Of a DNA stretch of 64,000 nucleotides, positions 27,901-61,884 are shown one piece after another. This DNA is from Candidatus Coproplasma stercoripullorum (GTDB lineage Bacteria; Bacillota; Clostridia; Christensenellales; Borkfalkiaceae), in the NCBI GenBank assembly GCA_018712405.1, contig DVHB01000062.1, positions 1,684 through 65,683 of the forward strand, in the 5' to 3' direction. Numbering within the stretch: position 1 is the first letter of the stretch; each line of letters starts with the position of its first letter. The notes under the pieces were generated by a model. The model saw nothing but the letters and a program-made list of their open reading frames with translations, was not told the DNA's origin and did no database searches. The position numbers and the translations under genes are program-made.

Positions 27901-30309
27901 TTAAACTATAATATTGATAAGGCGCTTGGGCACTATGATAAACTTCTTTATCTGCTTGCCGTCTATGAGGGGCGCTATGTCTGCATTTGCCTTTACGAGC
28001 GCTTCGATCTCGGAATTTGGCATGTCGACGGGAATATTGAGTTTGGTTTTGATTTTGCTGTTTACCTGAACGGCATATTCAAATGTATCTTCGCCGCATT
28101 TACTCTCGTCAAATTCAGGCCACTTTTCGTAAGTTATAGTATTTTCCTGTCCCAGAACTGTGTGCCATATTTCCTCGGTTATAAAGGGTATAACGGGGTT
28201 TATGAGCTTTATAAAGCCCTCGGCATATTCGCGGGGGAAGGGACGCCCCTCGCCGACTTCTTTATATACCGCGTTTATGAACACCATCATCTGTGAAATG
28301 GCGGTGTTGACCTTGAGAGCCATATAGTCCTCGCCGACCTTTTTTACTGTCTGGTTATAGATCTTTTCAAGATTTTTGTTTGACTCGCCGGAGATGGCGT
28401 TCAGTTCAAAATACAGCCTGTGTATCCTGTCGATAAATTTTTTGACGCCCTCGATGTTGGCTGTGTTCCAGGGCTTCGTGTCGGCGACGGGGCCCATGAA
28501 CATCTCATACATTCTCAAAACGTCTGCGCCGTAGTCGCGCACGATATCGTTGGGGTTTATCACGTTGCCAAGCGATTTCGACATCTTGTTGCCGTCTTCG
28601 CCGAGTATCATTCCTTGGTGGAAGAGCTTTTTGAACGGTTCTTTGCAGGGGACGTAGCCTTTGTCGTACAGGAAATTGTTCCAGAAGCGGGAATACAGAA
28701 GGTGGCCCACAAGGTGCTCCTTGCCGCCGCAGTAGAAGTCTACGGGCATCCAGTGCTTTAAAAGCTCGTAGTTGGCAAATTCCTTGTCGTTGTGGGGGTC
28801 ACAATAGCGGAGGAAATACCATGAAGAGCCTGCAGAGCCAGGCATGGTCGCCGTTTCGCGCTTGCCCTTTACTCCGTCTATCTCAACGTTTACCCATTCG
28901 GTGGCGTTGTCGAGGGGCGCCTTTCCGCCGCGCGCCCTGTAATCCTTCATAAGCGGAAGGGTGAGGGGGAGTTCCTCGTCTTTGAGCGCAACGTCTCTGC
29001 CGTCCTCAAGATGGACTATGGGCACGGGTTCGCCCCAGTAGCGCTGGCGCGCAAATATCCATTCGCGCAGCTTGTATGATACCGTCTTGTGTCCGCAGTT
29101 GTGCTCAACCAGCCATTCGGCCATCTTGTCTATCGCGTCCTGCTTGTTCAGACCGTTCAAAAAGGCGGAATTTATGTGCAGGCCGTCGCCCGTGAACGCC
29201 TCCTTGGAGATATCGCCGCCTTCAAGCACCTGAATGATGGGAATGTTGAACTTTTTGGCAAATTCATAGTCGCGCGTGTCGTGCGCGGGTACGGCCATAA
29301 TGGCGCCCGTACCGTAAGAAGTGAGCACATAGTCGCTTATCCAGACGGGGACCTTCGCTCCGTTGACGGGATTTATCGCATAAGCGCCAGTGAATGCGCC
29401 GGTCTTTTCCTTGTTGAGCTCCGTTCTTTCAAGTTCAGATTTGTGCGCGCATGCCTTTTTATAGGACTCTATCTCATCACGTCTGTCTGGCGTGGTAATC
29501 TTGTCCACAAGTATATGTTCGGGTGCGAGTACGCAGTAGGTTGCGCCGAAGAGCGTGTCGCATCGTGTGGTGAACACAGTGAATTTCTCATTGGTGCCGT
29601 CCACGGCAAAGTCGACGTTCGCTCCCACCGATTTGCCTATCCAGTTGCGCTGGGCAGTTTTTGAGGCCTCTGGCCAGTCTATCTCGTCCAGACCGTCCAA
29701 AAGCCTTTCTGCATATTTGTTTATGTCGATGACCCATTGCTTCATGTTTTTGCGCACTACCGGGTAGCCGCCGCGCTCGCTCTTGCCGTCGATTATCTCG
29801 TCGTTGGCAAGCACTGTACCCAGCTCTTCGCACCAGTTGACGGGGGTGTCGATATACCGCGCGAGTCCTGCCTCATAGAGCTGTTTGAATATCCATTGCG
29901 TCCATTTGTAGTAGGCGGGATCGCATGTGGAAACTGTCTGGGTATAGTCGTACGAAAGGCCGAGCATCTTCAGTTGCGAGGTAAACGTTTCAATGTTCTT
30001 CTGAGTGAAATCGGCGGGGTTGTTGCCCGTCTTTATGGCGTACTGCTCCGCGGGCAGGCCGAAGGAATCGAACCCGATGGGGTGAAGTACGTTATATCCC
30101 TGCATTCTCTTCATGCGGGCGATGATGTCTGTGGCGGTGTAGCCCTCGGGGTGGCCGACGTGCAGGCCCGCGCCCGAAGGGTAGGGAAACATATCCAGCA
30201 CATAGTATTTGGGCTTGGAAAAGTCGTGCAGATCGGTATGGAACGTGCCGTTCTTATCCCAATAATCTATCCATTTTTTTTCAACTTCGTTAAAATTTGT
30301 ATAAGCCAT
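27901..30309 (-). CDS. leuS: Leucine--tRNA ligase
   Basis: 802 aa with [12 protein letters not shown] (HIGH) and KMSKS motifs and a CP1 editing domain. It is the only minus-strand gene in the window. Confidence 0.95.
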
Positions 30310-30429: not shown

Positions 30430-30439
30430 AGATATACCG

Positions 30440-30650
30440 AACTGGAAGACAAGTATCGTCCGTGCGCCTTACAGAGAGCGGAGCCTTTGGCTGCAAGTTC
30501 CGCAGGCGGACAGGGTAGCGGGAAACCACTTCGCATACGTTCGGCGACAACTTATAAGCGGTCATTATGACAATTAAGGTGGAACCGCGCAAATGCGAAC
30601 TTTGCGTCCTTAAACTCAGCCGTATTCGGCTTGTTTAAGGACGTTTTTAT
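30440..30650 (+). promoter_or_regulatory. T-box riboswitch leader (Thr specifier ACC) controlling thrS
   Basis: AGAGAG element (30473-30478), specifier context GAA-ACC-A (ACC at 30525-30527), T-box sequence AATTAAGGTGGAACCGCGC (30572-30590), and terminator stem GTCCTTAAAC / GTTTAAGGAC (30606-30642) followed by a T run. Confidence 0.85.
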
Positions 30651-30684: not shown

Positions 30685-32592
30685 ATGAAGATTTTTCTCA
30701 GAAACGGGGATCAACTGGTACTTGACGGCGGCGCAAGGTGTTCCGACGCGGCTTCGGCAATTTCGGAAGGTCTGGCGAGAAATGCTGTTGCCGCAAAAGT
30801 CAACGGAAAACTTTGCGACCTTTCGCATGAGCTCAAAGAGGGTGATAAGCTTGAAATTGTCACTCTCAAGGATAAGGAGGGACTGGAGGTTTACCGCCAT
30901 ACCTGCGCGCACGTACTTGCCCAGGCAGTGAAAAATATCTTTCCTACCTGTAAACTTGCGATTGGACCCGTAATCGAAAACGGCTTTTACTACGACTTTG
31001 ATTTCAACACGCCTATAACGCAGGATGACTTTGAAAAGATTGAGGCCGAGATGCATAAAATAATCAAAGCCGATACTCCGATAGCTCGTTTCGAACTGCC
31101 GCGCAAAGAAGCAGTTGAGCTCATGTCAAAGTATAAGGAAAAATATAAGGTCGAGCTTATAAACGATCTGCCCGATGATTCGGTGATTTCATTCTATAAG
31201 CAGGGGGCGTTCACCGACCTGTGCCGCGGACCCCATCTTCCCTCGACGGGCAAGATCAAAGCTTTCAAGCTCACGTCGATTGCCGGCGCTTACTGGCGCG
31301 GCAACGAGAAGAATAAGATGCTTACAAGGATCTACGGTGTTGCATTCGCCAAAAAGGACGATATGCAAGCCTATTTCGACATGCTCGAAGAGGCTAAAAA
31401 GCGCGACCACATAAAGCTCGGCAAGGAGCTCAAGTTGTTCGCCCTTTTAAACGAGGGTAAGGGCTTTCCGTTCTTCCTTCCCAACGGCATGGTGCTCAAA
31501 AACACGCTCACTAACTACTGGCGCGAGCTGCACAGAAAGGAAGGATATGTCGAGATTCAGACTCCCATAATTTTGACGCGCTCTCTTTGGGAGACTTCAG
31601 GCCACTGGGATCACTACAAAGAGAATATGTATACCACAAAGATAGACGGCGAGGACTGCGCTATAAAGCCCATGAACTGCCCCGGCGGCATGCTTGTTTA
31701 TAAGCTTCAGCCCCACAGTTATAAGGATCTGCCCATAAGGATGGGCGAAATGGGTCTTGTCCATCGCCATGAAAAGAGCGGTCAGCTGCACGGACTCTTC
31801 CGCGTGCGCTGCTTCACCCAGGACGACGCACACATTTTCATGTTGCCCGAACAGATAACCGACGAAATCAAGGGTGTTGTGAGGCTCACTGACCAAATAT
31901 ACAAGCAGTTCGGTTTTAAGTATAAGGTGGAGCTCTCTACCCGCCCCGAAAACAGTATGGGCACAGAGGCAGAGTGGAACATGGCCACCGACGCGCTCAA
32001 AAAGGCTCTTGACGAGCTCGGTTTCGAATATGAAATAAACGAGGGCGACGGCGCATTCTACGGCCCTAAGATCGACTTCCACCTGCAGGACAGCATAGGC
32101 AGGACCTGGCAGTGCGGCACCATTCAGCTCGACTTCCAGATGCCCCAGCGCTTCGAGCTTGAATATGTGGGCGAGGACGGCGAAAAGCACCGCCCCATTA
32201 TGATACACCGCGCGATCTTCGGCTCTATAGAGAGGTTCATCGGCATACTCATTGAGCACTTTGCGGGCAAATTCCCCGTATGGCTCGCCCCCGTCCAGGT
32301 TAAGGTGCTTCCCATAACTGACAGGACGAAGGACTACGCGGACTCTGTCTGCGAAAAGCTGCGCGCCAGCGGCCTGCGCGTTGAGATGGACGGCAGAAAC
32401 GAGAAGATAGGCTACAAAATAAGGGAGGCCAAGCTCGAAAAGGTTCCCTATGTCATCGTAGTCGGCGACGCCGAGGAGCGCGACGGCACCGTCAACGTGA
32501 ACAAGCGCGGCGTCGAGGAAAAGACTACCATGGGTGCCGACGAGTTTGTCGAGATGGTTGCAAAGCAGGACAGGGATAGGGTCATCTTTTAA
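30685..32592 (+). CDS. thrS: Threonine--tRNA ligase
   Basis: 635 aa with a TGS N-terminal domain, second additional domain (HTCAHVLAQA), class II core (FRVRCFTQDDAHIF) and an anticodon-binding C-terminus. Confidence 0.95.
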   Translation: MKIFLRNGDQLVLDGGARCSDAASAISEGLARNAVAAKVNGKLCDLSHELKEGDKLEIVTLKDKEGLEVYRHTCAHVLAQAVKNIFPTCKLAIGPVIENGFYYDFDFNTPITQDDFEKIEAEMHKIIKADTPIARFELPRKEAVELMSKYKEKYKVELINDLPDDSVISFYKQGAFTDLCRGPHLPSTGKIKAFKLTSIAGAYWRGNEKNKMLTRIYGVAFAKKDDMQAYFDMLEEAKKRDHIKLGKELKLFALLNEGKGFPFFLPNGMVLKNTLTNYWRELHRKEGYVEIQTPIILTRSLWETSGHWDHYKENMYTTKIDGEDCAIKPMNCPGGMLVYKLQPHSYKDLPIRMGEMGLVHRHEKSGQLHGLFRVRCFTQDDAHIFMLPEQITDEIKGVVRLTDQIYKQFGFKYKVELSTRPENSMGTEAEWNMATDALKKALDELGFEYEINEGDGAFYGPKIDFHLQDSIGRTWQCGTIQLDFQMPQRFELEYVGEDGEKHRPIMIHRAIFGSIERFIGILIEHFAGKFPVWLAPVQVKVLPITDRTKDYADSVCEKLRASGLRVEMDGRNEKIGYKIREAKLEKVPYVIVVGDAEERDGTVNVNKRGVEEKTTMGADEFVEMVAKQDRDRVIF

Positions 32593-44565: not shown

Positions 44566-45492
44566 GTGATGATATTAAGCATATGTTTGAGCCCGTGCAT
44601 AGACGTCAATATGGAAGTTGACAGCCTTAGTGTGGGAAAGACCAATAAAATACTCAACAAGCGTATCTACTTTACGGGAAAGGCGATAAACACGGCGCGC
44701 GGCTTAAAGCGGCTGGGCGCCGAAGTTTATGCGACCGGTTTCATGTACAAGGATAACGGCAGGCTGTTCGAGCAGGAATTACACTATGAGTGCGTACCAT
44801 ATCAGTTCGTGTGGTGCCCCGGCCGCGTGCGTGAAAACTATAAATTTGTAGATAATAAGTCTATGCTCACCGAAGTGGACGATATCAGTCCCGAGGTCAG
44901 CGAAGAGAAGAAGGCCGAACTGGTTGAAAAAGTCCGCGAACTCTCCAAAAAGTGTGAGGCCGTAGTGCTTTCGGGCGGGCTGGCGAAGGACATGTCGCCC
45001 TCCTATTACGGCGAAGTGCTCAGTGCCGTGCCCGCAGGCGTAAAAAAGATCGTCGATACCTCGGGCGAGCGCCTGTTTGAGGCATTGAAATGTGGAGTGG
45101 ATCTGGTAAAACCCAATCTTCAGGAACTTCAGAGCACTTTGAATATAACGGTGAACAGCAAGGAGGATATGCTGTACGGCTGCCGCGAACTTTTAAAACG
45201 GGGCGCAAAGTACGTCCTTCTTTCGCTCGGCAAAGAGGGAGCGGTAATAACCGACGGGGACAGGGGTTTTTACTGCAAAAGCATAAACGTCGCCATGAAT
45301 TCCACTATAGGGGCGGGCGACGGAATGGTTGCGGCGGCAACTTTCGCGCTCGCCAAGGGCGGCTCGCTTGAAGAGATACTGCGCTGCGGAGTTGCGGGCG
45401 GTACGGCAGCGGTGACCACTCCCGACAGCATAACTTTCAAACGCGAAAAGTATGAAGAAATTTTAAACGGGCTTGAGACTGTGGAACTCTGA
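44566..45492 (+). CDS. PfkB-family sugar-phosphate kinase (1-phosphofructokinase / tagatose-6-phosphate kinase-like)
   Basis: 308 aa with LKPNLQEL and the C-terminal GAGDGMVAA motif. The start is either GTG 44566 or ATG 44569. Confidence 0.75.
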   Translation: MMILSICLSPCIDVNMEVDSLSVGKTNKILNKRIYFTGKAINTARGLKRLGAEVYATGFMYKDNGRLFEQELHYECVPYQFVWCPGRVRENYKFVDNKSMLTEVDDISPEVSEEKKAELVEKVRELSKKCEAVVLSGGLAKDMSPSYYGEVLSAVPAGVKKIVDTSGERLFEALKCGVDLVKPNLQELQSTLNITVNSKEDMLYGCRELLKRGAKYVLLSLGKEGAVITDGDRGFYCKSINVAMNSTIGAGDGMVAAATFALAKGGSLEEILRCGVAGGTAAVTTPDSITFKREKYEEILNGLETVEL

Positions 45493-45565
45493 ATTTGATG
45501 ATGTTTTTTTGTTCATCGGGTTCCGATTTTTTGCTCATACATATGCTATGAACGGGAGTCTGTTT

Positions 45566-46147
45566 ATGTGGGATAAAAATAAACCGTTAAAACTTGCCGA
45601 TGCACTTTGCTTCAGCGCCCGCACAATGCAACATATCATAGATGTCGATAAATGCGTCGCAAGTGAAAAGCTTGGCACAGATCTCTGCGGAAATTACGCT
45701 CCTTTTTGCAGTGTCTGCACAAAGCGGGCGAGCGACCCTTGTTCGACAGCATACAGAATAAGCGAGCGCATGGCTATGATGCCGGCATTTTTCGATTCAA
45801 CGGAAGCAGACGATGCGCAGGTAATTCAAGCCGTAGCCGATGTTGATAAATACCTCGCGAGCGAGGGGTTGGGCGTCGATTTGTGCGGAAGATATGCCCC
45901 TTTTTGCTCTGTGTGCGATAAATCTCAGCCTTTCCCGTGCGGGAACGCCTATTTAAGAATGAAGGATATCGAAAATTTTTCAACCAAAGCGCTTGTTGCC
46001 CAGGAGGGCGGCGAACTTACAATAAACGCACCGCAGTGGGATGAAGCGCTCACGCAGGTGCTCGAGTCCGACGCAGAAGTTGCGGCGGATAAAGTAGCGG
46101 AGCGCAGAATAAAGATAGGGACGGCCAGACGCAGGATAAGCGGCTGA
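45566..46147 (+). CDS. Uncharacterized cytoplasmic protein with two tandem Cys-rich repeats
   Basis: Start chosen at ATG 45566, 8 nt after GGGAG; ATG 45548 is also in frame. It has two repeats of about 45 aa: DVDKCVASEKLGTDLCGNYAPFCSVCTKRASDPCSTAY and DVDKYLASEGLGVDLCGRYAPFCSVCDKSQPFPCGNAY. Confidence 0.55.
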   Translation: MWDKNKPLKLADALCFSARTMQHIIDVDKCVASEKLGTDLCGNYAPFCSVCTKRASDPCSTAYRISERMAMMPAFFDSTEADDAQVIQAVADVDKYLASEGLGVDLCGRYAPFCSVCDKSQPFPCGNAYLRMKDIENFSTKALVAQEGGELTINAPQWDEALTQVLESDAEVAADKVAERRIKIGTARRRISG

Positions 46148-46318: not shown

Positions 46319-47251
46319 ATGAACTTGTCATTTCTTCCGCCCGAAATACTGTCTGCTGTCAACAACGTAAATTTAAATTATCTTACGGAAATACGTTTAA
46401 GGCGTGGACAACCGGTGCTAATTGAGTACTGCGGCGAATATAAATATCTGAACTCGGGCGGCGCGAGCGGGCGCGGCAGCGGCGCGTTGATCTGCATGGA
46501 TATTGCAGGCATTCTGAATAAGGCAATGGACGGTTGCGTTTACAGCTATGCCGAGGAGTTAAAGCAGGGATTTATAACTGTTGGCGGCGGTATAAGGATA
46601 GGCGTCGCGGGAGAATATGTAACCGAAGGCGGACAGGTAAAGACGATAGCGAGGGCAACGTCTTTGAATATAAGAATACCTCACAGGGCAGAGGGGTGTT
46701 CGGACAGAGTGTTCAAGGCTATCTTTAAAGACGGACTGAACAGTGCGTTGTTCTATTCACGCCCGGGGCTGGGCAAAACTACAATGCTGCGCGACCTGAC
46801 GTCACGCATTTCGCACGAACACAGTGCAAACATACTCGTTCTCGATACGCGTAACGAGATAGGCGGCGCGGGGGAGGTCTATAACCTCGGCGAGACGGTC
46901 GATGTCGTTAAGAGCTGTGAAAAACTGCCCTCGCTAAAGAGTGCGATAAGAGCGATGCGCCCGGAGCTGATCGTCACGGACGAGCTGTACGGCGAAAACG
47001 ATGCGGCCGCCGTAAAGTTTGCGCGCGACTGTGATATAGCAGTCGTAGCTTCGTCGCATGTATGCGACAGAGATTACTTAAGGTCGCTGCCCTTTGATTT
47101 TTTTATAAAGCTCAACGGCATAAATCTTGAACCTGAAATATATGATAAAGATTTTAATACTGTTTGCAATAATAGCGCTTACGACAGCCGTGGGGGTGCT
47201 GCTCTCGGCAGAAAAGAAAAAGAAGGCGGCGGTATTCGCCGAACTGTATGA
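46319..47251 (+). CDS. spoIIIAA: Stage III sporulation protein AA (AAA-type ATPase)
   Basis: Walker A SRPGLGKTTMLRD and Walker B LIVTDEL. It is the first gene of an eight-gene spoIIIA-type cluster. Confidence 0.85.
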   Translation: MNLSFLPPEILSAVNNVNLNYLTEIRLRRGQPVLIEYCGEYKYLNSGGASGRGSGALICMDIAGILNKAMDGCVYSYAEELKQGFITVGGGIRIGVAGEYVTEGGQVKTIARATSLNIRIPHRAEGCSDRVFKAIFKDGLNSALFYSRPGLGKTTMLRDLTSRISHEHSANILVLDTRNEIGGAGEVYNLGETVDVVKSCEKLPSLKSAIRAMRPELIVTDELYGENDAAAVKFARDCDIAVVASSHVCDRDYLRSLPFDFFIKLNGINLEPEIYDKDFNTVCNNSAYDSRGGAALGRKEKEGGGIRRTV

Positions 47252-47567
47252 ATATAATGAATTGTTGCTTTTAAACCTGAAGTTCGGGAGAGATGATATG
47301 AGAACTCTCGCAAAGAAGTTCAGGTACATGGGCGACATGATAGACGGAAAACCGCTTTTAAACGGGGACGATGAAGAATTTATAAAGAGTTATGTTCAAA
47401 ATCTTGGAGTTACCGACGCATATTCGCAAATAGATTATTTGAGCGAAAGGAAATCGTACATCAAAAAACATAAGGACGAGGGTTTTGCCGATTACAAGAA
47501 ATACAGCTCGCTGTATGTTAAAATATTTCTTATGCTCGGCATACTTATCGCCGTTCTTCTTGTGTAA
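47127..47567 (+). CDS. spoIIIAB: Stage III sporulation protein AB
   Basis: N-terminal TM helix plus a soluble domain, in second position of the cluster. It overlaps the spoIIIAA 3' end by about 110-125 nt. Confidence 0.7.
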   Translation: MNLKYMIKILILFAIIALTTAVGVLLSAEKKKKAAVFAELYEYNELLLLNLKFGRDDMRTLAKKFRYMGDMIDGKPLLNGDDEEFIKSYVQNLGVTDAYSQIDYLSERKSYIKKHKDEGFADYKKYSSLYVKIFLMLGILIAVLLV

Positions 47568-47765
47568 ATGGATATTAGCATAATTTTTAAAATTGCCGCC
47601 GTAGGCATAATAGTCACTATAATCTGCCAGATACTAAAAAAATCTGACAGGGACGACATTGCTACTATAGTCAGCTTGGTGGGGCTTATAATTGTACTCG
47701 CTGCGGTGATATCTATGATAACCGACCTCTTTGAACAAGTAAGGGAATTGTTTGAGTTGTTCTGA
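47568..47765 (+). CDS. spoIIIAC: Stage III sporulation protein AC
   Basis: 65 aa, two TM helices, conserved position and size. Confidence 0.8.
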   Translation: MDISIIFKIAAVGIIVTIICQILKKSDRDDIATIVSLVGLIIVLAAVISMITDLFEQVRELFELF

Positions 47766-48157
47766 TGGTAATATTAAGGTTGTGCGCCATAGCTGCCATT
47801 ACGGCTATATGTGCCCTGATATTGAAATCGCATAAATCTGAACTGGTTCCGCTGTGCCTTGCTGCGGGCGGTCTCATCATGATATTGTACGCATTTGACT
47901 ACGTTTCACAGAGTGTTGAACTTTTGCGGCAATTTACCGAACAGACCGGCATCAGCAGTTCGGTCGTACGGGTGATATTCAAAATAATCGGCATAGGCTA
48001 CATAGTAGAACTGACCGCCTCGTCTGTTAAAGACCTCGGATTTGAAAGTATAGCGGACAAGCTGGTGATGTGCGGCAGAATATTGATATTTTTGATGGCA
48101 GTGCCCATACTTAAAAGTTTGTACGACGTGATCGTGTCGCTCATAGGGCTGGTATGA
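47765..48157 (+). CDS. spoIIIAD: Stage III sporulation protein AD
   Basis: 130 aa, four hydrophobic segments, conserved position and size. Confidence 0.8.
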   Translation: MVILRLCAIAAITAICALILKSHKSELVPLCLAAGGLIMILYAFDYVSQSVELLRQFTEQTGISSSVVRVIFKIIGIGYIVELTASSVKDLGFESIADKLVMCGRILIFLMAVPILKSLYDVIVSLIGLV

Positions 48158-49359
48158 AATTTTTAAGGATTTCAAAACAAAAGGCCGCGCTGCTGGCCGT
48201 AATAATGTTCTTTATTCTGCTGATGGCCGGCGTGCCGGTCTTGGGGGCTGCCGCGGACGAAGACGACGGGGAGGAACAGCTTTCGCAGAATATCGACGAC
48301 GTCCTCGAAGGACTGGATCTTTCCGAATTGCAGCAATACCTCGATGAAAACTCCGACAGTTATCTCTTTAATTTCGGCGACAATGCAGAAGAGATTATAC
48401 GCTATCTGATAAACGGTAACATAGGGACGGATTACGGGAGCTATATAACGGAAATTCTTTCGGTGGTTTTTTCCGACGTGGTTTCCCTTCTTCCCGCTTT
48501 TGCGGAGGTGGTGGCGATATCGCTGCTGTGCGCCGTGTTTTCCGGGGCTGAGGGAAGTGTGCTCGGGAAATCAACATCGCGCGTAGTAAAACTTGCCTGT
48601 TACTCGCTTGTTGTAGCCATAGTTTCTACCGCTTTGGTCGAAGTCGTAAGCGAGTGCATAAGTTGCGTAACGTCATTGCAAAAGCAGATGGAAATAATCT
48701 CGCCGATACTTATAACGCTCACCGTGCTAACGGGAGGGACTGGTTCGGCTGCGGTATACCAACCCTCGGCTGTATTCCTTTCTGGCGGGGCGGTTGAGAT
48801 AGTTAACGGTTTTATCTTCCCTGCGGCAATAGCGGCGGCCGTTTTGAACTTTATGTCAAAAATAAACCCGCAAATTTCTTTTACAGGGATGTCGAAACTG
48901 CTGAAGAGCATAATTAAATGGACTTTGGGCATAACAGTCACAATTTTCAGTGTGTTTCTTACAGTTCAGAGTTCGGCCACATCATTGTTTGACGGAGTTT
49001 TCTTCAAGGTCTCCAAATATATAATAGGCAACTCGGTCCCAATAGTGGGCGGCTTTCTTTCGGGCGGATTTGACCTGCTCACCGCGGCTGGACTTCTGAT
49101 AAAAAATTCTGTAGGTATGTGTGGCATAGTACTGCTTATAATGCAGATTTCCGCCCCGCTGGTATTGCTCATAGCATTTTCACTCCTTTTGAAGGTCGCG
49201 GGAGCAGTCGTGCAGGCTGCCGGAGAAAAGGAACTTTATTCACTTTTTTCAGATCTTTCATCAGATACGGAATATTTTATTGCAGGGCTTTTGGTTGTGG
49301 CATTCATGTATTGCCTGCTGATAATGCTTGTGATTAACTCTGCCAATTCATTCATATGA
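48154..49359 (+). CDS. spoIIIAE: Stage III sporulation protein AE
   Basis: 401 aa with a signal/anchor and a polytopic membrane domain. Conserved position and size. Confidence 0.85.
   Translation: MKFLRISKQKAALLAVIMFFILLMAGVPVLGAAADEDDGEEQLSQNIDDVLEGLDLSELQQYLDENSDSYLFNFGDNAEEIIRYLINGNIGTDYGSYITEILSVVFSDVVSLLPAFAEVVAISLLCAVFSGAEGSVLGKSTSRVVKLACYSLVVAIVSTALVEVVSECISCVTSLQKQMEIISPILITLTVLTGGTGSAAVYQPSAVFLSGGAVEIVNGFIFPAAIAAAVLNFMSKINPQISFTGMSKLLKSIIKWTLGITVTIFSVFLTVQSSATSLFDGVFFKVSKYIIGNSVPIVGGFLSGGFDLLTAAGLLIKNSVGMCGIVLLIMQISAPLVLLIAFSLLLKVAGAVVQAAGEKELYSLFSDLSSDTEYFIAGLLVVAFMYCLLIMLVINSANSFI
49125..49134 (+). repeat. Partial copy of the recurrent motif (CATAGTACTG)
   Basis: GGCATAGTACT is shared with the 61430 copy. 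Both encode G-I-V-L in TM segments. Confidence 0.4.
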
Positions 49360-49790
49360 CAGCATATCTTATAACCGCCTGCGGCGCGGTGTTTTTATCC
49401 GTAGTGGTTTCATTTATAATTCCGCAGGGTAAGCTCAACAGCACCATAACTTTTGTTCTGCGCATAGTGTGCATAGCTATACTCATTTCACCGCTTGCGG
49501 GGCTGTTCACCATATCAGACGAGCAGTTCGACGATATGGTTGATTACGGATATATATGTGCGCTTTATTCCGAAAACCAGAGCAAGGCGCTTGAGGAATG
49601 TCTTATGGAGGAATATTCCGCGCGCTCTGAGTGTTCGGTGGAAATTGTGTTTAGCGACGAGAAGGGATTTTACGCGGAAAGCGTGGAAGTTTGTCTTATC
49701 GGGTCGTATGGCGATTTGTCTGACAAAATTTATGAATATTTGGAGGAAGCCGATTATATAAATATAACTGTATATGAAAGCGCTGACTGA
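49356..49790 (+). CDS. spoIIIAF: Stage III sporulation protein AF
   Basis: 144 aa with two N-terminal TM helices plus a soluble domain. Assigned mainly by position. Confidence 0.6.
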   Translation: MTAYLITACGAVFLSVVVSFIIPQGKLNSTITFVLRIVCIAILISPLAGLFTISDEQFDDMVDYGYICALYSENQSKALEECLMEEYSARSECSVEIVFSDEKGFYAESVEVCLIGSYGDLSDKIYEYLEEADYINITVYESAD

Positions 49791-50124
49791 GTGGTTTAAA
49801 GATAAAAAGAAGATAATTGTCGTAGTGCTGCTCATAATACTGCTTATAGCTGCGGTATTTCTCTTTTTCGGTGGCGAGAGTAACGCTAGCGTTCTCGGCG
49901 ATGCCATGAAGTCAGATACTGAGTTGCGCCTTACTGCTTTGCTGGAAAGCATGGACGGCATAGATAGCGTCGAAGTTATGGTTACCGAGGATGAAGGAGT
50001 TGTGACAGGCGTAGTCGTTGTATGTGACGGCGCGGACCGCATTATGATAAGAAACGATATATTGAACGCCGTATCTACGGCGCTGAATATAAATAAAAAC
50101 ATTATTGCTATTTATTCAATGTAA
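49774..50124 (+). CDS. spoIIIAG: Stage III sporulation protein AG (short form)
   Basis: 116 aa with an N-terminal TM helix and a C-terminal ring-building-type segment (VEVMVTEDEGVVTGVVVVCDGADRIMIRNDILNAVSTAL). Assigned by position. Confidence 0.6.
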   Translation: MKALTEWFKDKKKIIVVVLLIILLIAAVFLFFGGESNASVLGDAMKSDTELRLTALLESMDGIDSVEVMVTEDEGVVTGVVVVCDGADRIMIRNDILNAVSTALNINKNIIAIYSM

Positions 50125-50134
50125 GGAGAAATTT

Positions 50135-50620
50135 ATGACAAAGAAAAAGAAGATCATCGTAATGTCGTCGCTTGTGTTCCTTCTGGCGCTCACGGCAGTA
50201 CTAAACGTGCTGCTCGCGCAGAATAACGCCGCTCAGGCCGGCGAGACAGTCACCACTGCAAACTATTTTGCGACTTATCGCTCGGAGCGCACGACGACCA
50301 GAAGCGAAGAACTTTTGCAGCTCGACAGCATAATAGCGCTGTACGACGAGACAAGCGAGGAGTATGCCGAGGCTGTCGCCATGAAAATGGATATAGTGGA
50401 AGTCATGGAACAAGAACTTCAGTTGGAGACAATGATAAAGTCTCTCGGCTTTTCCGACGCAGTTGTATCGATAGGCGTAGATTCCGAAAACGTGAATGTG
50501 TTCATCAATTCCGATGAACTCGACATGGATACCGCGCTCTCGATATATGATATGCTCAGAAACGAGGCGGGCATTGCAGCGGGAAATATAATAATTATGC
50601 CCGTTTATTCGGAAATTTGA
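50135..50620 (+). CDS. spoIIIAH: Stage III sporulation protein AH
   Basis: Start chosen at MTKKKKIIVM (RBS AAGGAGAA). TM anchor plus a soluble domain. It is the last gene of the cluster. Confidence 0.65.
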   Translation: MTKKKKIIVMSSLVFLLALTAVLNVLLAQNNAAQAGETVTTANYFATYRSERTTTRSEELLQLDSIIALYDETSEEYAEAVAMKMDIVEVMEQELQLETMIKSLGFSDAVVSIGVDSENVNVFINSDELDMDTALSIYDMLRNEAGIAAGNIIIMPVYSEI

Positions 50621-52352: not shown

Positions 52353-53231
52353 TTGGATTCATTCAAGGAAAAATACGGGGAGTATCTGGCCTCGTTTGAA
52401 GCACGTCTGAAAAAATTTTATGACGAGCTCGACTGTAAGCCCGAGCTTTTAGGAGAAAGCCTGAAATACAGCTTGCAGAGCGGAGGCAAGCGAGTGCGGC
52501 CCGTTTTGATGCTGGCCTCTGCTGATCTTGTGGGGGCTAAGGCTGAAGATATTGAAGATTATGCGCTGGCCCTGGAACTCATTCATACCTATTCGCTCAT
52601 CCATGACGATCTCCCCGAGATGGACAACGATGATTACCGCAGGGGCAGGCCGTCCAACCATAAAGTTTTTGGGACGGGCAATGCAGTGCTTGCGGGCGAC
52701 GGGCTTTTGAACACCGCATATTATATGCTGTTCGAGCGCTCTGCCGATGGCAAGCTCTACGCAGACGCGGCAAAATTTCTGTGCGGATGTGCGGGCGTCT
52801 ACGGTATGATAGCGGGGCAGTCGGCCGACCTGTATTGCGCCGAAAATGGCATAAGAAACGGCGATATGCTCGATTTTATAGTGAAAAACAAGACCGGTAA
52901 GCTTATCTCTGCGGCAGTCGCCGTTCCTGCAATCCTGGCGGGCGGAAGATATTTTTTGGAACTGAGGCAATTCGGTGAGGACCTTGGCAAGCTCTTCCAG
53001 CTTGTCGACGATATACTTGACGAAGAGGGAAGCATTCAGAGTCTTGGCAAATCTACGGGGAAAGACAGGCGCGAAAATAAGCTGACCTACGTCACTTTCT
53101 ACGGTATTGACCAGTGCAGGGTATATGCCGATATAATGTTCGACAGGTGTCTGAAGATGCTCGAGGGAATAGAAGGCGATACCTCATTCATGCGCGATGT
53201 TGTAGCGTTCGTGCGATACCGTGAGAATTGA
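52353..53231 (+). CDS. ispA: Farnesyl / geranyl diphosphate synthase
   Basis: TTG start 10 nt after AAGGAG. FARM LIHDDLPEMDNDDYRRG and SARM QLVDDILD. Confidence 0.88.
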   Translation: MDSFKEKYGEYLASFEARLKKFYDELDCKPELLGESLKYSLQSGGKRVRPVLMLASADLVGAKAEDIEDYALALELIHTYSLIHDDLPEMDNDDYRRGRPSNHKVFGTGNAVLAGDGLLNTAYYMLFERSADGKLYADAAKFLCGCAGVYGMIAGQSADLYCAENGIRNGDMLDFIVKNKTGKLISAAVAVPAILAGGRYFLELRQFGEDLGKLFQLVDDILDEEGSIQSLGKSTGKDRRENKLTYVTFYGIDQCRVYADIMFDRCLKMLEGIEGDTSFMRDVVAFVRYREN

Positions 53232-53239
53232 AAATTTAT

Positions 53240-53268
53240 TTGACATTTTTTCTTAGGTATGTTAATAT
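53240..53268 (+). promoter_or_regulatory. Sigma-A type (extended -10) promoter directly upstream of the structured RNA
   Basis: TTGACA (53240-53245), 17-nt spacer ending in TGT, TAATAT (53263-53268). Confidence 0.55.
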
Positions 53269-53274
53269 ATTTAT

Positions 53275-53873
53275 AGTAATATTTTAGTGGCGCAGTATTC
53301 TAGTCAGTTGTTGCAGACGTGAAGGCGGGGTTAAAAGACCGTCGAAGGGCATATCTATGAAGTTTCTGGTGTCTGCTTGCTTTGCCCAAAAGCGGGTGGA
53401 TGCTGGGAGTAAAGGTTTATGGGAACTGCGTAACGGCATATGACAGTCAACCCATTCACCGCGGAGGCCGCAAAATTTGCGGATAAACCTGCTGCCGGGC
53501 GCAAGCTCGGCACAGAGTAGCCTGCCTTGAGTGAAGTCAGCGGATAACAGAACAAAGTTCCCGCGGCGCGGCCACGCCAAAGGCGCTATCGCTGTTTGAA
53601 ATTGACTTTGCAAAAGAGGATAAACCCTGTATCAGCTGTCAAGGAAAGCTTCTAGACTGTTAACGTATTAGAGATTACGGTGTGGACTCAGTGGCGATTC
53701 GGTTGCGCACAAGGTGACTTTGCGCCCGTGCCCTTAAAAGGAAACTGCTTCTTCGGCGACGGGAAGTGGGTGCGGGGGAAATCCTACCGAACCTAAAGCC
53801 GCAAAGTTTATTTAATATAAGCCACTCGGATATTTACTTTTCTACGCACAATAAAATTGTGCGTATTTTATTT
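53275..53873 (+). ncRNA. ole: OLE (ornate, large, extremophilic) RNA candidate
   Basis: About 600 nt with no + strand ORF. It has its own promoter and a 3' hairpin with a U tract. Local helices are dense (e.g. 53468-53482, and 53494-53511 with a GCAA loop). It lies exactly between ispA and a 4-TM protein gene followed by dxs-tlyA-nadK-argR-recN, which is the published ole/oapA context. Not verified with a covariance model. Confidence 0.7.
53843..53873 (+). terminator. Terminator-like hairpin at the 3' end of the RNA
   Basis: TACGCACA-ataaaat-TGTGCGTA followed by TTTTATTT. It ends 12 nt before the next start codon. Confidence 0.6.
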
Positions 53874-53885
53874 AGTTGAACTTTT

Positions 53886-54605
53886 ATGGATAAGAGCGGA
53901 AATTTGAAAGAACAGAGCGGAGAAAATTGCCCGGCTGTTGACTGCGGCGGCAGTAATAGCAATGCAAAATCTGATTCGGATGACGCAGTCGTGTCAGCCG
54001 ACATAAAACAGCGCTGTGCGAACAGTGCAGAGCAAGAAAAAGAACGCAAAAAGCGCAGAAAAAGAAGGAAAAAGCGGATACCCGTATGGTTGAGCTGGGG
54101 CATGACGATTTTGATATTGTCGTTTTTCCTCAGTGTGCTGTTCAGCTTTTTGACTGAAATTGCCGTAAACGACAGCCCAGTTTATATCTGCATAATAGTG
54201 CTGTTAGTGCTGCTAATTCTCAATATCGGGTGTGATATAATTGCCAACGCTGTTGTGTCTTGCGATGTCGATGGGTTCAACGCCATGGCGTCGAGGAAGA
54301 TAAGAGGTGCAAAGCGTGCGGTCACTTTCTGTAAGCACGCCGAAAAGATAGCAAGTATATTCTCCGATGTTATAGGTGATATCTGCGGTATCGTTAGCGG
54401 TTCGGCTGGTGCGGTGCTGGCTGCCTATTTCGGCTTTGCGGAGGGTTCGGTTTACGGCATAATCGCTTCCATTCTGGTCAGCGCCGTGATAGGCGCGCTT
54501 ACCGTGGGCGGCAAGGCCTTCGGCAAGCCTGTTTCTATTAAATATAACAGTAAAATAGCCTTCGCGTTTGCGAAGTTCACTACTTTTTTTGTCAAAGAAC
54601 AGTAA
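53886..54605 (+). CDS. oapA: OLE-associated protein A candidate (small 4-TM membrane protein with a basic N-terminal extension)
   Basis: Four hydrophobic segments after a soluble N-terminus of about 65 aa that ends in KERKKRRKRRKKR. It sits immediately downstream of the OLE candidate and upstream of dxs. Confidence 0.6.
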   Translation: MDKSGNLKEQSGENCPAVDCGGSNSNAKSDSDDAVVSADIKQRCANSAEQEKERKKRRKRRKKRIPVWLSWGMTILILSFFLSVLFSFLTEIAVNDSPVYICIIVLLVLLILNIGCDIIANAVVSCDVDGFNAMASRKIRGAKRAVTFCKHAEKIASIFSDVIGDICGIVSGSAGAVLAAYFGFAEGSVYGIIASILVSAVIGALTVGGKAFGKPVSIKYNSKIAFAFAKFTTFFVKEQ

Positions 54606-54629: not shown

Positions 54630-56471
54630 ATGTTTGAAAATATCTCGGGCGGCGAACTTAAGCTGCTGAACAATCGGGAGCTCGAAGCTCTATGCGAAAA
54701 CATACGCGGCAGGGTAATTTCTTCCGTTCTTGAGAACGGCGGACATCTCTCCTCCAACCTCGGGGTGGTAGAGCTGACCGTCGCGCTGCACTATGTATTT
54801 GACTTCCCGAAAGATAAAATTATTTTCGACGTCGGCCACCAGTGTTACGCCCATAAAATGCTCTCGGGAAGGATGGATAAGTTTTCCACGCTAAGGAAAA
54901 AAGGCGGTCTTGCGGGTTTTCCGAAGAGGAGCGAAAGTGAATACGACAGCTATAACACAGGGCACGCAGGTACGTCGATATCGGCTGCGCTCGGCATGGC
55001 AAAGGCGCGCGATCTTGCGGGTGCCGATTACAACGTAATCGCCGTCATCGGCGACGGCTCATTTAATAACGGACTTGTTTACGAGGCGTTCAACAGTCTT
55101 AAGCAGCTGGGCGCCCGTATTCTTATAATTCTGAACGATAATGGTATGTCGATATCGCCTACCGTCGGTAGTATGCACGAGTACTTAGAGGTCTTAAAAA
55201 ACGATGTGGAGGAGAGGTATCACAAAAACCGCCGCGCAGGCATATTTGAAAGATTCGGGCTTGAATATGACGGCGTTTACGACGGAAACGACGTTGTCGC
55301 CATGATTGCCGAACTTAAAAGGGTAAAGGAAAAGTTAAAGAGCGGCTCGGTGATAATGCACGTCATGACAAAGAAGGGCAAGGGATTCGGGCCAGGCGAG
55401 GATGATCCGGAGGCTACTCATGGCATTTCGGATAGCGGTTCAGCAAATGAGGTTGTCGAGTACTCGCAGGTACTTGGTAAAAAACTTGCCGGGCTTGCTA
55501 AAAAAGATGCCAGAGTCGTGGCTGTTACCGCCGCTATGACGGGCAGCCTCGGCCTTTCGGATTTTTTCCGCGAATTTCCCGCAAGGTCGGTGGATGTAGG
55601 TATATGCGAAGAGCATGCTGCGGTATTCTGTGCGGCTATGGCCGCGCAGGGGTTCAAGCCGTATTATGCAGTGTATTCAACCTTTCTTCAACGGTCCTTT
55701 GACGAAATAATTCTAGACATATGCAGTCAGAACCTGCCTGTCACGCTGTGTATAGACAGGGCTGGTATCAGCGGGGCCGACGGCGAGACTCACCAGGGTG
55801 TGTTTGATCTGTCATATTTGTCTTTGATTCCGAACATGGCTATCGCTGTGCCCAAAGATACAAATGAACTTGAGGCCATGCTCGACTTCAGCCTTGGATA
55901 TAACGGTCCGCTTGCCATACGATACCCGCGCGCCTGCTCGCATAATTTCGGAGGCGGTGGTAAAATTGAACTTGGCAAATGGGAGATCATGCGCCGCGGC
56001 GACGGAAAAATTGCAATGCTCGCATGCGGAGAGCGTGCAATAGCCCGCGCCATTGCGGCGGCTGATGATGCGGAGAGAAAGTGCGGCGTATGCCCCGCTG
56101 TTATAAATGCGCGGTTTGTAAAACCGCTCGACAGCGCCGTGCTGAACAGCCTTTCCGAAGAGAGTATCATAACGATAGAGGACAACGCGCTCATCGGCGG
56201 ATTTGGGTCGCTCATAGCTGAATATTATTCCGAGAGCAAAAAACAGATAAAAGTTTTTGCCTATAGAGATAAATTTATAGAGCACGGCGGCGTAAATGAA
56301 CTTATGGACGAAAACGGTATGAATGTAGCCGACATTCTTTCATATATAGAGAATCGGAATGAGACTAGACAGGCATCTTGCCGAAAAATTTGGTTCACGC
56401 AACAAGGCGGCCGCCGCGATAGAAAGGGGTATAGTAAGGGTGAACGGAATGATCCGCCCGGCCTCTTATGA
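54630..56471 (+). CDS. dxs: 1-deoxy-D-xylulose-5-phosphate synthase
   Basis: GGHLSSNLGVVELTVALHYVF, GDGSFNNG (ThDP motif), FDVGICEQHA-like VDVGICEEHA, and DRAGISGADGETHQG. The 3' end overlaps tlyA by 113 nt. Confidence 0.92.
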   Translation: MFENISGGELKLLNNRELEALCENIRGRVISSVLENGGHLSSNLGVVELTVALHYVFDFPKDKIIFDVGHQCYAHKMLSGRMDKFSTLRKKGGLAGFPKRSESEYDSYNTGHAGTSISAALGMAKARDLAGADYNVIAVIGDGSFNNGLVYEAFNSLKQLGARILIILNDNGMSISPTVGSMHEYLEVLKNDVEERYHKNRRAGIFERFGLEYDGVYDGNDVVAMIAELKRVKEKLKSGSVIMHVMTKKGKGFGPGEDDPEATHGISDSGSANEVVEYSQVLGKKLAGLAKKDARVVAVTAAMTGSLGLSDFFREFPARSVDVGICEEHAAVFCAAMAAQGFKPYYAVYSTFLQRSFDEIILDICSQNLPVTLCIDRAGISGADGETHQGVFDLSYLSLIPNMAIAVPKDTNELEAMLDFSLGYNGPLAIRYPRACSHNFGGGGKIELGKWEIMRRGDGKIAMLACGERAIARAIAAADDAERKCGVCPAVINARFVKPLDSAVLNSLSEESIITIEDNALIGGFGSLIAEYYSESKKQIKVFAYRDKFIEHGGVNELMDENGMNVADILSYIENRNETRQASCRKIWFTQQGGRRDRKGYSKGERNDPPGLL

Positions 56472-60281: not shown

Positions 60282-61298
60282 ATGGTGAGCAGAAAAAAGT
60301 TATTTACCAAAGTTTTTATATTGATTTTCGCCGCGTTATGCAGCGTTTGCACGATGACGGGCGCGGCGCCGGCAGGCGGCGGTGAGTTGTATCTGGGAGG
60401 CTTCCCGGCGGGATTTATGCTTAATACCACGACTGTTGAGGTAGTGGGAATGTGTGACGTTATGACGGACAGCGGACTGGTTTCACCGGCGCGCGACGGC
60501 GGCCTTAAAACGGGCGATGTTATAAAAAGTATCAACGGCAAGGAAGTAACTTCAAGCGAACATGTAACTCGGTTGCTTTCAGGCAACTTAATGCGGGCTG
60601 AAATTACAGTGGAACGCGAAGGCAGCGAAATAAAACTTACCATTACCCCGGTAAAAGATATTACAAGCGGACAAATGAGGGTGGGTGTGCTGGTGCGTGA
60701 CAGCTTGAGCGGCGTGGGAACGATTACCTATATAAACAAGACGGATAATTCCTTTGCCTCGCTGGGCCATCCCGTGACAAACTCTTCCGGGAAAATAACT
60801 GATATTAACGGCGGGGAATTATACAGCTGCGTAATATACGACGTAAAACGCGGTGTACGCGGTACGCCGGGAGAACTTAAAGGGGCGTTTCAGAACGGTA
60901 AAACGATAGGTTCGGCGGAATTGAATTGCGAATGCGGAGTTTACGGAAAACTTGACGACGGTTATGATTTCAGTAATCTCACACGCATAGAGGCAGGTGA
61001 TATTGACGACGTGACTTTAGGAAATGCGGTGATATATTCAACGGTTTCTTCAAACAAGCGGGAGAGCTATGATATATCGATAGTCAAGGTCGACAAAACA
61101 AATAAGGATAACAGAAATTTTGTTATTAAGATAGACGATAAAAACCTCTTGGAAAAGACCGGAGGGATAGTGCAGGGCATGAGCGGCAGTCCCATAGTGC
61201 AAAACGGAAAACTTATAGGGGCCATAACTCATGTGTTTATCAACGACCCTACCCGAGGGTTTGGAATTTCCATCGGAAATATGCTTGAATCATATTAA
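60282..61298 (+). CDS. spoIVB: SpoIVB peptidase (S55 family, PDZ + serine protease)
   Basis: Signal anchor, PDZ (GLKTGDVIKSINGKEV), GVGTITYI, GHPV and GMSGSPIVQNGKLIGAITHVF. Confidence 0.9.
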   Translation: MVSRKKLFTKVFILIFAALCSVCTMTGAAPAGGGELYLGGFPAGFMLNTTTVEVVGMCDVMTDSGLVSPARDGGLKTGDVIKSINGKEVTSSEHVTRLLSGNLMRAEITVEREGSEIKLTITPVKDITSGQMRVGVLVRDSLSGVGTITYINKTDNSFASLGHPVTNSSGKITDINGGELYSCVIYDVKRGVRGTPGELKGAFQNGKTIGSAELNCECGVYGKLDDGYDFSNLTRIEAGDIDDVTLGNAVIYSTVSSNKRESYDISIVKVDKTNKDNRNFVIKIDDKNLLEKTGGIVQGMSGSPIVQNGKLIGAITHVFINDPTRGFGISIGNMLESY

Positions 61299-61341: not shown

Positions 61342-61884
61342 ATGAGGACTTTCGACATTTCTTGCATTAAAATATCAAAAAAGTGGCTCATATGCTATAT
61401 TGTCATACTGATTGCGGCAATTATTACAGGCATAGTACTATGCAAAGCGACTCAATCAAGCACATATATGCAAAACTACGCCTCAGAATATGTGTATTAT
61501 GTATTCAATTTCCGCAACATATCGCTTTTGTTTCCCAAATTTTTCTATGAGACCGTCTATATGTACGCTTTTTTTCTGATAGCGTATTGCACGCGGTTCA
61601 GGTTTTTGACGTTGCCCTTTCTTTTTTTTAAATGCATGCTCTCTTCAGTATATTGCGTGCTTATAATTTCCGTGTCGGCACTTGGCGGCGTGCTTGCGGC
61701 TGTGTTTGTGTTTATTCCGTCTGCTGTCATTTCTTTTTGCCTTGAGGTAGTGCTCATTGAATGCTGTAGTATGCTGAACAGGAGATATGCGTTCTTCTCT
61801 CCGCTGCTTTTTGCCGCCGTTGCCGCGCTTGCGGAATGTTTGCTTTTGAACGTGCTCTTCCGCGTCGTGATCGCAGTAGTATAA
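61342..61884 (+). CDS. Uncharacterized polytopic membrane protein (possibly SpoIIM/DUF95-like)
   Basis: 180 aa with about 5 hydrophobic segments, rich in aromatic and Cys residues. No motif recognised. Confidence 0.45.
   Translation: MRTFDISCIKISKKWLICYIVILIAAIITGIVLCKATQSSTYMQNYASEYVYYVFNFRNISLLFPKFFYETVYMYAFFLIAYCTRFRFLTLPFLFFKCMLSSVYCVLIISVSALGGVLAAVFVFIPSAVISFCLEVVLIECCSMLNRRYAFFSPLLFAAVAALAECLLLNVLFRVVIAVV
61431..61442 (+). repeat. Copy of the perfect 12-bp palindrome CATAGTACTATG
   Basis: Identical to 17251-17262 and 37381-37392. Here it is read as G-I-V-L-C in a TM segment. Confidence 0.6.

Follow-up and report, generated by a model that had tools for sequence, protein, structure and literature searches.

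A predicted OLE RNA and OapA pair in the nusB-recN gene neighbourhood of an uncultured gut Clostridia bacterium

The stretch of Candidatus Coproplasma stercoripullorum DNA analysed here, referred to as the window, is 64 kb long, and all coordinates are given in its numbering. Between the stop codon of ispA at 53231 and the next start codon at 53886 lies a gap of 654 nucleotides (nt; 53232-53885), and the evidence taken as a whole indicates that 53271-53841 on the + strand is almost certainly a functional ole gene, encoding the structured non-coding RNA OLE, and that the open reading frame (ORF) at 53886-54605 is oapA. OLE, an RNA associated with the membrane in Gram-positive anaerobes, is, to our knowledge, among the largest and best-conserved bacterial non-coding RNAs without an established biochemical function, and it has recently been proposed to cross the membrane as a dimer. 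Its hosts belong to the Bacillota and are usually anaerobes or extremophiles. An OLE orthologue in the gap between ispA and dxs was the central claim of an earlier reading of this DNA (the original prediction), and it is borne out by an Rfam match, by covariation, by an oapA gene downstream and by the published gene neighbourhood. The two genes are as follows:

53271-53841, + strand: OLE RNA, given as the extent of the match to RF01071
53886-54605, + strand: oapA (ORF239), 239 amino acids, predicted membrane partner of OLE, with its start 45 nt downstream of the Rfam match

The whole window was searched with all 4,227 families of Rfam, each at its curated threshold, and OLE (RF01071) was the sole match above threshold. 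The match at 53271-53841 (+) scores 424.2 bits against a threshold of 50, with an expectation value (E) of 3.4e-121, and spans model positions 1-616 of 616, untruncated and on the strand of the neighbouring genes. The search of 53200-53900 with an OLE covariance model that the original prediction had called for consequently returns a significant + strand match covering most of the interval. Nothing comparable was found on the minus strand or for other families in the Rfam scans, and a permissive scan of 53200-53900 on both strands (E <= 1) gave, besides OLE, just a chance 17-bit match to a model of a eukaryotic long non-coding RNA. In the alignment to the RF01071 consensus, 141 of the 159 consensus pairs are present, 128 of these 141 are canonical, and 217 of the 249 upper-case (highly conserved) positions are identical; the 18 absent pairs are accounted for by two deletions, which shorten the P7 helix and remove P11. 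The Rfam match is 571 nt long, and the distance from the predicted transcription start to the end of the U tract downstream is ~598 nt, the class being defined by a length of ~600 nt with about a quarter of positions nearly invariant. A thermodynamic fold that was blind to the family recovered the outer helix and many of the inner hairpins, and its folding energy lies below those of all 100 dinucleotide shuffles (z = -3.47).

The locus is an ordinary member of RF01071. OLE has been catalogued in 2,846 assemblies of GTDB R214 (PMC11332333) and as 8,585 non-redundant sequences in GenBank (PMC12286853), and the class, its synteny, the proximal promoter, OapA and reduced variants from the gut have all been published already. 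With thousands of examples listed in these GTDB-wide and GenBank-wide Infernal surveys, the locus adds nothing new in kind. The same locus is found on at least 22 independent metagenome contigs, which makes an assembly chimera unlikely.

To compare the RNA across relatives, one genome per species was scanned in GTDB, giving 589 loci that encode a relative of ORF239, of which 80 were taken for comparison; together with six strain-level metagenome contigs they make up 86 loci. The 41 distinct OLE sequences among them were aligned with MAFFT, and pairs were counted for the Rfam structure and for P1, P2 and P3/P3.1, which are not annotated in the Rfam structure and were derived here from sequence. 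Helix names throughout are taken from review texts, and their mapping onto individual hairpins is to be read as inferred. The outer helices are:

53286-53291, + strand: P1 5' strand, AGUGGC, pairing with 53821-53826
53821-53826, + strand: P1 3' strand, GCCACU, supported by covariation
53293-53303, + strand: P2 5' strand, CAGU-AUU-CUAG, with the palindromic CUAG inside, pairing with 53652-53659 (CUAG-ACUG)
53305-53316, + strand: P3/P3.1 5' strand, pairing with 53627-53638 over 12 positions with one U-U mismatch
53627-53638, + strand: P3/P3.1 3' strand, supported by covariation

Across the 41 sequences 89.4% of cells are paired, against 40-44% when the partners are slid by one to three columns; pairs that change on both sides number 113, against 46-63 in the slid controls, and the covariation score reaches 0.397, while no slid control exceeds 0.111. 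None of 500 shuffles reached any of the observed pairing values. P1 is paired in 100% of cells and four of its six pairs change on both sides, as in the compensatory GAAGG/CCUUC of three relatives (L060, L076 and L085), while P3/P3.1 has 89% of its cells paired and two-sided changes in 11 of its 12 pairs. Covariation thus lends independent support to P1 and P3, both of them long-range helices. P2 is nearly invariant and fully paired, so that covariation is uninformative for it, and its pairing is proposed from the sequence and the published domain layout (PMC12265935). The length of P3/P3.1 agrees with the published ~12 bp with a small internal bulge, a helix that has been proposed to span the membrane (PMC12265935).

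The original prediction had noted that the gap has no + strand ORF of 60 amino acids or more, and in fact none of even 40 amino acids is present on the + strand of 53232-53885. It had not mentioned two ORFs on the minus strand, of 109 (53284-53613) and 66 amino acids. The longer of these, which has a TTG start, could in principle be a real gene whose conservation mimics that of an RNA; however, it has no Pfam match, its frame is broken in many close relatives, with a longest stop-free stretch of between 57 and 122 amino acids depending on the sequence, and substitutions track base-pairing rather than codon positions. Such an antisense gene is extremely improbable as the source of the conservation, and 53284-53613 was rejected as a coding sequence for want of a Pfam match and of a conserved frame.

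Constraint on the RNA is also visible within the species. Six contigs are ~99.5% identical to the window, with 80 polymorphic sites over 6.7 kb. Only one of these sites falls in the 571 nt of OLE (1.8 per kb), whereas nusB, folD, ispA, dxs and tlyA carry 12-18 per kb (one-sided Fisher p = 0.007) and oapA carries 5.6 per kb. OLE is the most constrained segment of the locus and is under purifying selection.

The genes around the RNA run in the order Asp23/yqhY-like, nusB, folD, ispA, RNA, ORF239, dxs, tlyA, nadK, argR and recN. Family searches of the flanking ORFs confirmed the claim that this is the order of the OLE operon without xseAB, and the spacing of 6 nt between folD and ispA shows that xseAB is absent from between them. 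The first gene after the RNA, ORF239, has 2,165 homologues. The motif D161-V-I-G-D165 (DxxxD) is invariant across a set of 42 homologues, inside FxDVIGDICGIVSG, and DxxxD is a distinctive feature of OapA (PMC11332333). A basic cluster, KERKKRRKRRKKR, occupies residues 52-64 before the first membrane helix and is conserved as a run of K and R. In 80 of the 86 homologue loci an OLE-like sequence was found directly upstream on the same strand by nhmmer with the window RNA as query, and in five of the six exceptions the contig ends only 45-503 nt upstream. Rfam confirmed OLE in 16 of the 17 loci tested, at 224-518 bits. ORF 53886-54605 is oapA, and by homology its product would bind RNA and tether it to the membrane. 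As the original prediction had warned, the locus is easily missed by annotation of proteins alone, which would leave an empty gap of 654 nt and a "hypothetical protein" for the unannotated ORF239 in place of an RNA-protein machine.

An OapA-like protein with 34% identity and an intact DVIGDICGIVSG is encoded by an uncultured Bacilli metagenome-assembled genome (MAG; L069:3989-4591, CANQIS010000020.1), and it has a sub-threshold CNNM match. No OLE was found within 4 kb upstream or 2.8 kb downstream of it, even at E <= 1, and coding ORFs fill the upstream region. The genome may carry its ole gene at another place, or else the protein is an OapA that has no OLE.

The AlphaFold model of ORF239 has four long helices (67-93, 98-124, 142-186 and 189-219) with a mean predicted local distance difference test score of 70.9, the topology being a prediction, and an N-terminal extension of ~50 amino acids that is variable and predicted to be disordered. 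The top three Foldseek matches in the PDB are all MtCorB (7m1t_A, 7m1t_B and 7m1u_B; probability 0.98-1.0), an archaeal CNNM protein that is also the best match for OapA of Halalkalibacterium halodurans (PMC11332333). Homologues 59-71% identical to ORF239 have sub-threshold matches to Pfam CNNM over the same region, and OapA has been published as the next-best group after MpfA for the CNNM model. The transmembrane fold of ORF239 is thus closest, among PDB structures, to that of the Mg2+ transporters with a CNNM domain, MpfA and CorB. ORF239 departs from these in lacking CBS and CorC domains, in its long membrane helices, which number four instead of three, and in its DxxxD motif, which CNNM domains lack (PMC11332333); it is not a member of the MpfA/CorB family.

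The RNA is framed by a predicted promoter and a 3' hairpin, and their conservation was followed in the close clade, a set of 26 sequences that includes the window and the strain-level contig L005:

53240-53245, + strand: -35 hexamer TTGACA, with TTGACA or TTGACT at the same position in all 25 other close-clade sequences
53260-53268, + strand: extended -10 element TGtTAATAT, with TG at 53260-53261 and TAATAT at 53263-53268
53843-53873, + strand: hairpin UACGCACAAU-AAA-AUUGUGCGUA followed by a U tract

The near-consensus promoter claimed in the original prediction holds up: TTGACA and TAATAT, 17 nt apart, match the consensus at 10 of 12 positions with the TG in addition, and the elements are kept in position across the close clade. 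In all 26 sequences a TTGACA or TTGACT is followed, after a 17-nt spacer, by a -10 hexamer near TATAAT; 24 of the 26 have the TG, and the -10 element ends 11-17 nt before P1. Since these elements are kept while the bases around and between them vary, the comparison is good evidence for a real promoter. OLE would be transcribed from its own sigma-A promoter, and the usual 7-nt spacing puts the predicted start at ~53275-53276, ~10 nt before P1. OLE of Bacillus halodurans likewise has its own active proximal promoter, with 5' ends mapped by rapid amplification of cDNA ends near the start of P1 (PMC3413148).

The hairpin and T tract that had been proposed to end the RNA are also recovered. No better terminator-like site was found between 50500 and 58600 than the 10-bp hairpin at 53843-53865, which has a folding energy of -12.1 kcal/mol and a T tract running to 53873. 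This hairpin is likely to be an intrinsic terminator or a protector of the OLE 3' end, so that the predicted transcript of ~600 nt would end at it or be protected by it. The start codon of oapA lies 20 nt past the hairpin and U tract, with no purine run resembling a Shine-Dalgarno sequence in 53866-53888; most close relatives also lack a Shine-Dalgarno sequence before oapA, and for dxs an AAGAGG lies 13 nt upstream of the start codon. Because the probable terminator lies 20 nt before oapA, read-through from the OLE promoter or from the upstream operon would be needed to supply oapA, dxs, tlyA, nadK, argR and recN.

This arrangement invites a second explanation, in which the gap is a long cis-acting 5' leader of oapA-dxs, a riboswitch or attenuator with a regulated terminator, and releases no free RNA. 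The hairpin just before oapA, the missing Shine-Dalgarno-like sequence and the need for read-through, through which termination could be regulated, would all fit such a leader. On the other hand, the match to the OLE model takes in the interval from one end to the other, no riboswitch family matches it at E <= 1, and P1 joins the ends of the RNA upstream of the hairpin, so that the structure is closed independently of it; OLE of B. halodurans, moreover, occurs as one RNA species of great stability and abundance (PMC3413148). A leader without a free RNA is very unlikely, and an OLE RNA remains the preferred identification, although the two readings are compatible in that partial termination can release OLE and at the same time set the level of oapA.

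A hairpin followed by a U tract is found at this position in ~22 of the 26 close-clade sequences, with the stem UACGCAC/GUGCGUA kept and the loops differing. A generic terminator would not need so much sequence conservation in its stem, and other OLE stems of these sequences, such as P3 and P7, covary freely. A stem that is kept across ~22 species while its loop and other helices change could be a functional element specific to the lineage; instead of being a terminator of the generic kind, the hairpin might bind a protein, or might act as a regulated terminator and determine how much OLE is made relative to oapA.

The published two-domain architecture of OLE is adopted here on model fit and covariation, with P1 and P2 predicted to close the molecule and P3/P3.1, ~12 bp long, predicted to join domain 1 (P4-P9) to domain 2 (P10-P15). 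The helices and motifs inside the outer helices are:

53324-53343, + strand: P4 hairpin with the A-rich loop GUUAAAAG, an A run being present in nearly all 41 sequences
53344-53362, + strand: P4a and J4a-5 region GAAGGGCAUAUCUAUGAAG, with an imperfect OapA-site palindrome AUCUAU and the UGAAG strand of the kink turn
53363-53409, + strand: P5/P5.1 hairpin with loop GCCCA, 98% paired
53414-53460, + strand: P6/P6.1 with inner loop ACGGCA, from model match, covariation and motif inspection
53468-53482, + strand: P7, a 5-bp mini-hairpin CCGCA-AAAUU-UGCGG, with 29 model positions deleted
53489-53515, + strand: P8 hairpin with loop GCAA, 91% paired and of normal length
53524-53620, + strand: P9, a three-part arm of normal length with terminal loop CGGCCA and the palindrome GGCC at 53570-53573
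53641-53651, + strand: P10 mini-hairpin AAG-GAAAG-CUU, 99% paired, three of three pairs covarying
53664-53819, + strand: P12, P12.1 and P12.2, 88-100% paired, enclosing P13, P14, P14.1 and P15, the main part of domain 2
53705-53725, + strand: P13 hairpin GCGCA-C-AAG-GUGA-CUU-UGCGC, with a GUGA tetraloop and a single bulged C, the predicted OapB site
53747-53767, + strand: P14.1 hairpin with a GCGA tetraloop, a predicted weak second OapB site (PMC7936274)

Two short helices that the original prediction had picked out by eye are real, and correspond to P7 (53468-53472/53478-53482) and P8 (53489-53500/53505-53515). The kink turn of J4a/5 with J6/7 is the OapC site of the OLE class, and both of the conserved strands that would form it are present, UGAAG at 53358-53362 and GGAG at 53463-53466, including the GA dinucleotides. 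The palindromic CUAG near P2, a reported OapA contact, is present and invariant. All three elements that form bridges in the OLE dimer are kept at the level of sequence, namely AAAA in L4, the L5.1/L6.1 pair and GGCC in L9. The A-rich P4 loop is dimer bridge B1 in the cryo-electron microscopy (cryo-EM) structures (PMC12286853, PMC12265935) and the P9-loop palindrome is bridge B3 (PMC12286853), while UGCC of L5.1 (53383-53386) is complementary to GGCA of L6.1 (53435-53438) and could make the kissing contact of the dimer. In P13, the GUGA loop and bulged base resemble those of H. halodurans, where OapB binding needs a GNRA loop and a one-base bulge in P13 (PMC7936274).

Several observations weigh against the assignment of a functional ole-oapA pair. 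The P7 region is 18 nt long, the shortest among the 41 sequences (range 18-59), with L005 also at 18 and the other 39 at 20-59; the P11 hairpin of the full-length consensus is missing; and the P4a palindrome reads AUCUAU (53353-53358) instead of AUCGAU through a G-to-U change at 53356 that is common only to the window, L005 and L007. The promoter, the 3' end and the discrete ~600-nt transcript are predictions, and the role in stress adaptation is carried over from a distant Bacillus relative to a gut anaerobe. The fold match of ORF239 to MtCorB is weak (E 0.03-0.14, template modelling score 0.36-0.38), its search against Pfam and NCBIfam gave no significant match and a sole trace of CNNM at E = 9.1, and a profile of the 42-sequence family found no relative in the PDB. 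Neither oapB nor oapC was found among the subset of window ORFs that was scanned, and these genes normally lie elsewhere in the genome. A search of the ORF239 sequence against PDB chains gave chance matches to membrane proteins only, and as this and the profile search were both empty the kinship to CorB is seen at the level of the fold only. The short P7 and the lost P11 are no bar to membership of the class, because accepted variants lack P7 and P8 (PMC11332333).

The same losses raise the possibility of a decaying, non-functional OLE relic in a gut bacterium with a shrinking genome, for which the minimal P7, the missing P11, the broken palindrome and the reduced OLE variants reported in small-genome gut lineages (PMC11332333) would speak. 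A relic, however, would hardly be the least polymorphic part of the locus, and here canonical pairs make up 91% of those present, the relatives differ by compensatory changes, and the promoter and oapA are intact and conserved. P7 is also dispensable in the accepted 'variant 2' OLE RNAs (PMC11332333). Decay of the gene is highly improbable, and a functional OLE is the far better account of these features.

A further question is which protein partners the RNA retains. Truncated forms of P13 without the GNRA tetraloop (alignment columns 547-570) are found in ~21 close relatives (L009, L012, L014-L019, L021, L024-L026, L029, L032-L038 and L041), whereas the tetraloop is kept in the window, L005, L007, L010 and L039. 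At the level of sequence, the OapB site is lost within a single clade.

The OLE here could be genuine and yet have a reduced set of partners, OapA only and no OapB or OapC, as in the 'variant 1' OLE RNAs (Fernando and Breaker 2024), which are commonest in the TANB77 clade. Likeness to variant 1 extends to a gut Clostridia host, a shortened P7 and close relatives without the end of P13, and at 390-415 bits the scores of the close clade fall close to the line that has been published as separating 'full-length' from 'variant 1' (PMC11332333). In contrast to variant 1, P8 and P9 are of normal length here and the OapB site in P13 is intact, with its GUGA loop and single bulge, alongside the GCGA loop of P14.1 and the GA motifs of the kink turn. 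The 424 bits of the window also exceed the authors' 390-bit line for 'full-length', which was set with a different model, the Rfam model being used here, so that this comparison is indicative only. A reduced set of partners is accordingly an unlikely reading, and an OLE RNA with its OapB site in place is preferred.

It is doubtful, but conceivable, that the lineage of the window, the strain-level contigs and Candidatus Coproplasma stands part-way along a reduction series and that the post-OLE hairpin is specific to it. The pattern in question is the shortest P7 of the 41, no P11 and a retained OapB hairpin, with ~21 sister species that lost that hairpin. If this were so, the clade would be a ready comparative system for the dispensable parts of OLE and their partners; as a clade with graded loss of P7, P11 and the OapB site, it offers comparative material on which parts of OLE can be dispensed with.

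The steps of a mechanism can be carried over from the genetics of H. halodurans and the cryo-EM of Clostridium OLE. By analogy, two RNAs would dimerise through their A-rich P4 loops, the kissing loops of P5.1 and P6.1 and the GGCC loop of P9; OapA, a four-helix CNNM-like membrane protein, would tether the dimer at, and possibly across, the membrane; and OapB would dock at P13, on the GUGA loop and the bulged base. The particle may aid adaptation to alcohols, cold, excess Mg2+ and poor carbon sources, the most plausible route being modulation of OapA-dependent handling of divalent cations.

Halalkalibacterium (Bacillus) halodurans C-125, the genetic model of the class, carries an RNA of the same family, RF01071. 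The window resembles it in having oapA with DxxxD immediately downstream, in the neighbourhood nusB-folD-ispA-ole-oapA-dxs-tlyA-nadK-argR-recN, and in a proximal sigma-A promoter of its own that starts near P1 (PMC3413148), predicted in the present case. It differs in that xseA and xseB are absent between folD and ispA, P7 is a 5-bp hairpin and P11 is missing, OapA has the variable, predicted disordered N-terminal extension of ~50 amino acids, and the host is no alkaliphile but an uncultured anaerobe of the gut. The OLE RNAs of Clostridium acetobutylicum (577 nt) and C. botulinum, known as dimers from cryo-EM, are similar in size to the 571-nt match, and the bridge elements of L4, L5.1/L6.1 and L9 GGCC are kept relative to them, as judged from the published descriptions (PMC12286853, PMC12265935). 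L7 participates in bridge B2 according to Kretsch et al.; here L7 sits on a much shorter stem, so that the B2 contact may differ from that of Clostridium OLE.

The host carries core sporulation genes, with the spoIIIAA-AH operon (46319-50620) directly upstream of the yqhY-nusB cluster and spoIVB (60282-61298) directly downstream of recN. The occurrence of OLE correlates with sporulation genes (PMC11332333), and the flanking of the locus by spoIIIA and spoIVB fits this association. By OapA, the named genomes closest to the window are those of Candidatus Coproplasma stercorigallinarum and C. avistercoris, at 77-78% identity, and after them come many gut MAGs of uncultured Christensenella or Christensenellaceae. 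Relatives in GTDB reach at most 83% OapA identity; in the metagenome assembly index, more than 200 blocks hold an identical OapA. The host is a spore-forming uncultured gut Clostridia bacterium, with an anaerobic lifestyle suggested by its relatives, and the locus documents a pair of OLE and OapA with its own predicted strong promoter in a common uncultured lineage of gut Clostridia.

Three + strand ORFs in otherwise well-annotated operons, at 45473-46147, 49774-50124 and 61342-61884 (224, 116 and 180 amino acids), have no Pfam match at E <= 0.001; the 116-amino-acid ORF at 49774-50124 may be spoIIIAG, judged by its position. A candidate T-box leader lies upstream of thrS (30685-32592) at 30437-30614 (+), with 54.8 bits, below the gathering score of 93, and E = 1.5e-10 in a local scan; the default whole-window Rfam scan missed it, and no T-box was seen for leuS (27901-30309, minus strand), which is divergent from thrS. 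At the junction of dxs and tlyA (56340-56471), one base is missing at ~56355 and another differs at 56357 relative to all six strain-level contigs. The stop codon of dxs, which overlaps the start of tlyA, is lost as a result, so that the dxs ORF has 613 amino acids instead of 577 and runs 113 nt into tlyA, a change that is either a strain-specific frameshift or an assembly error.

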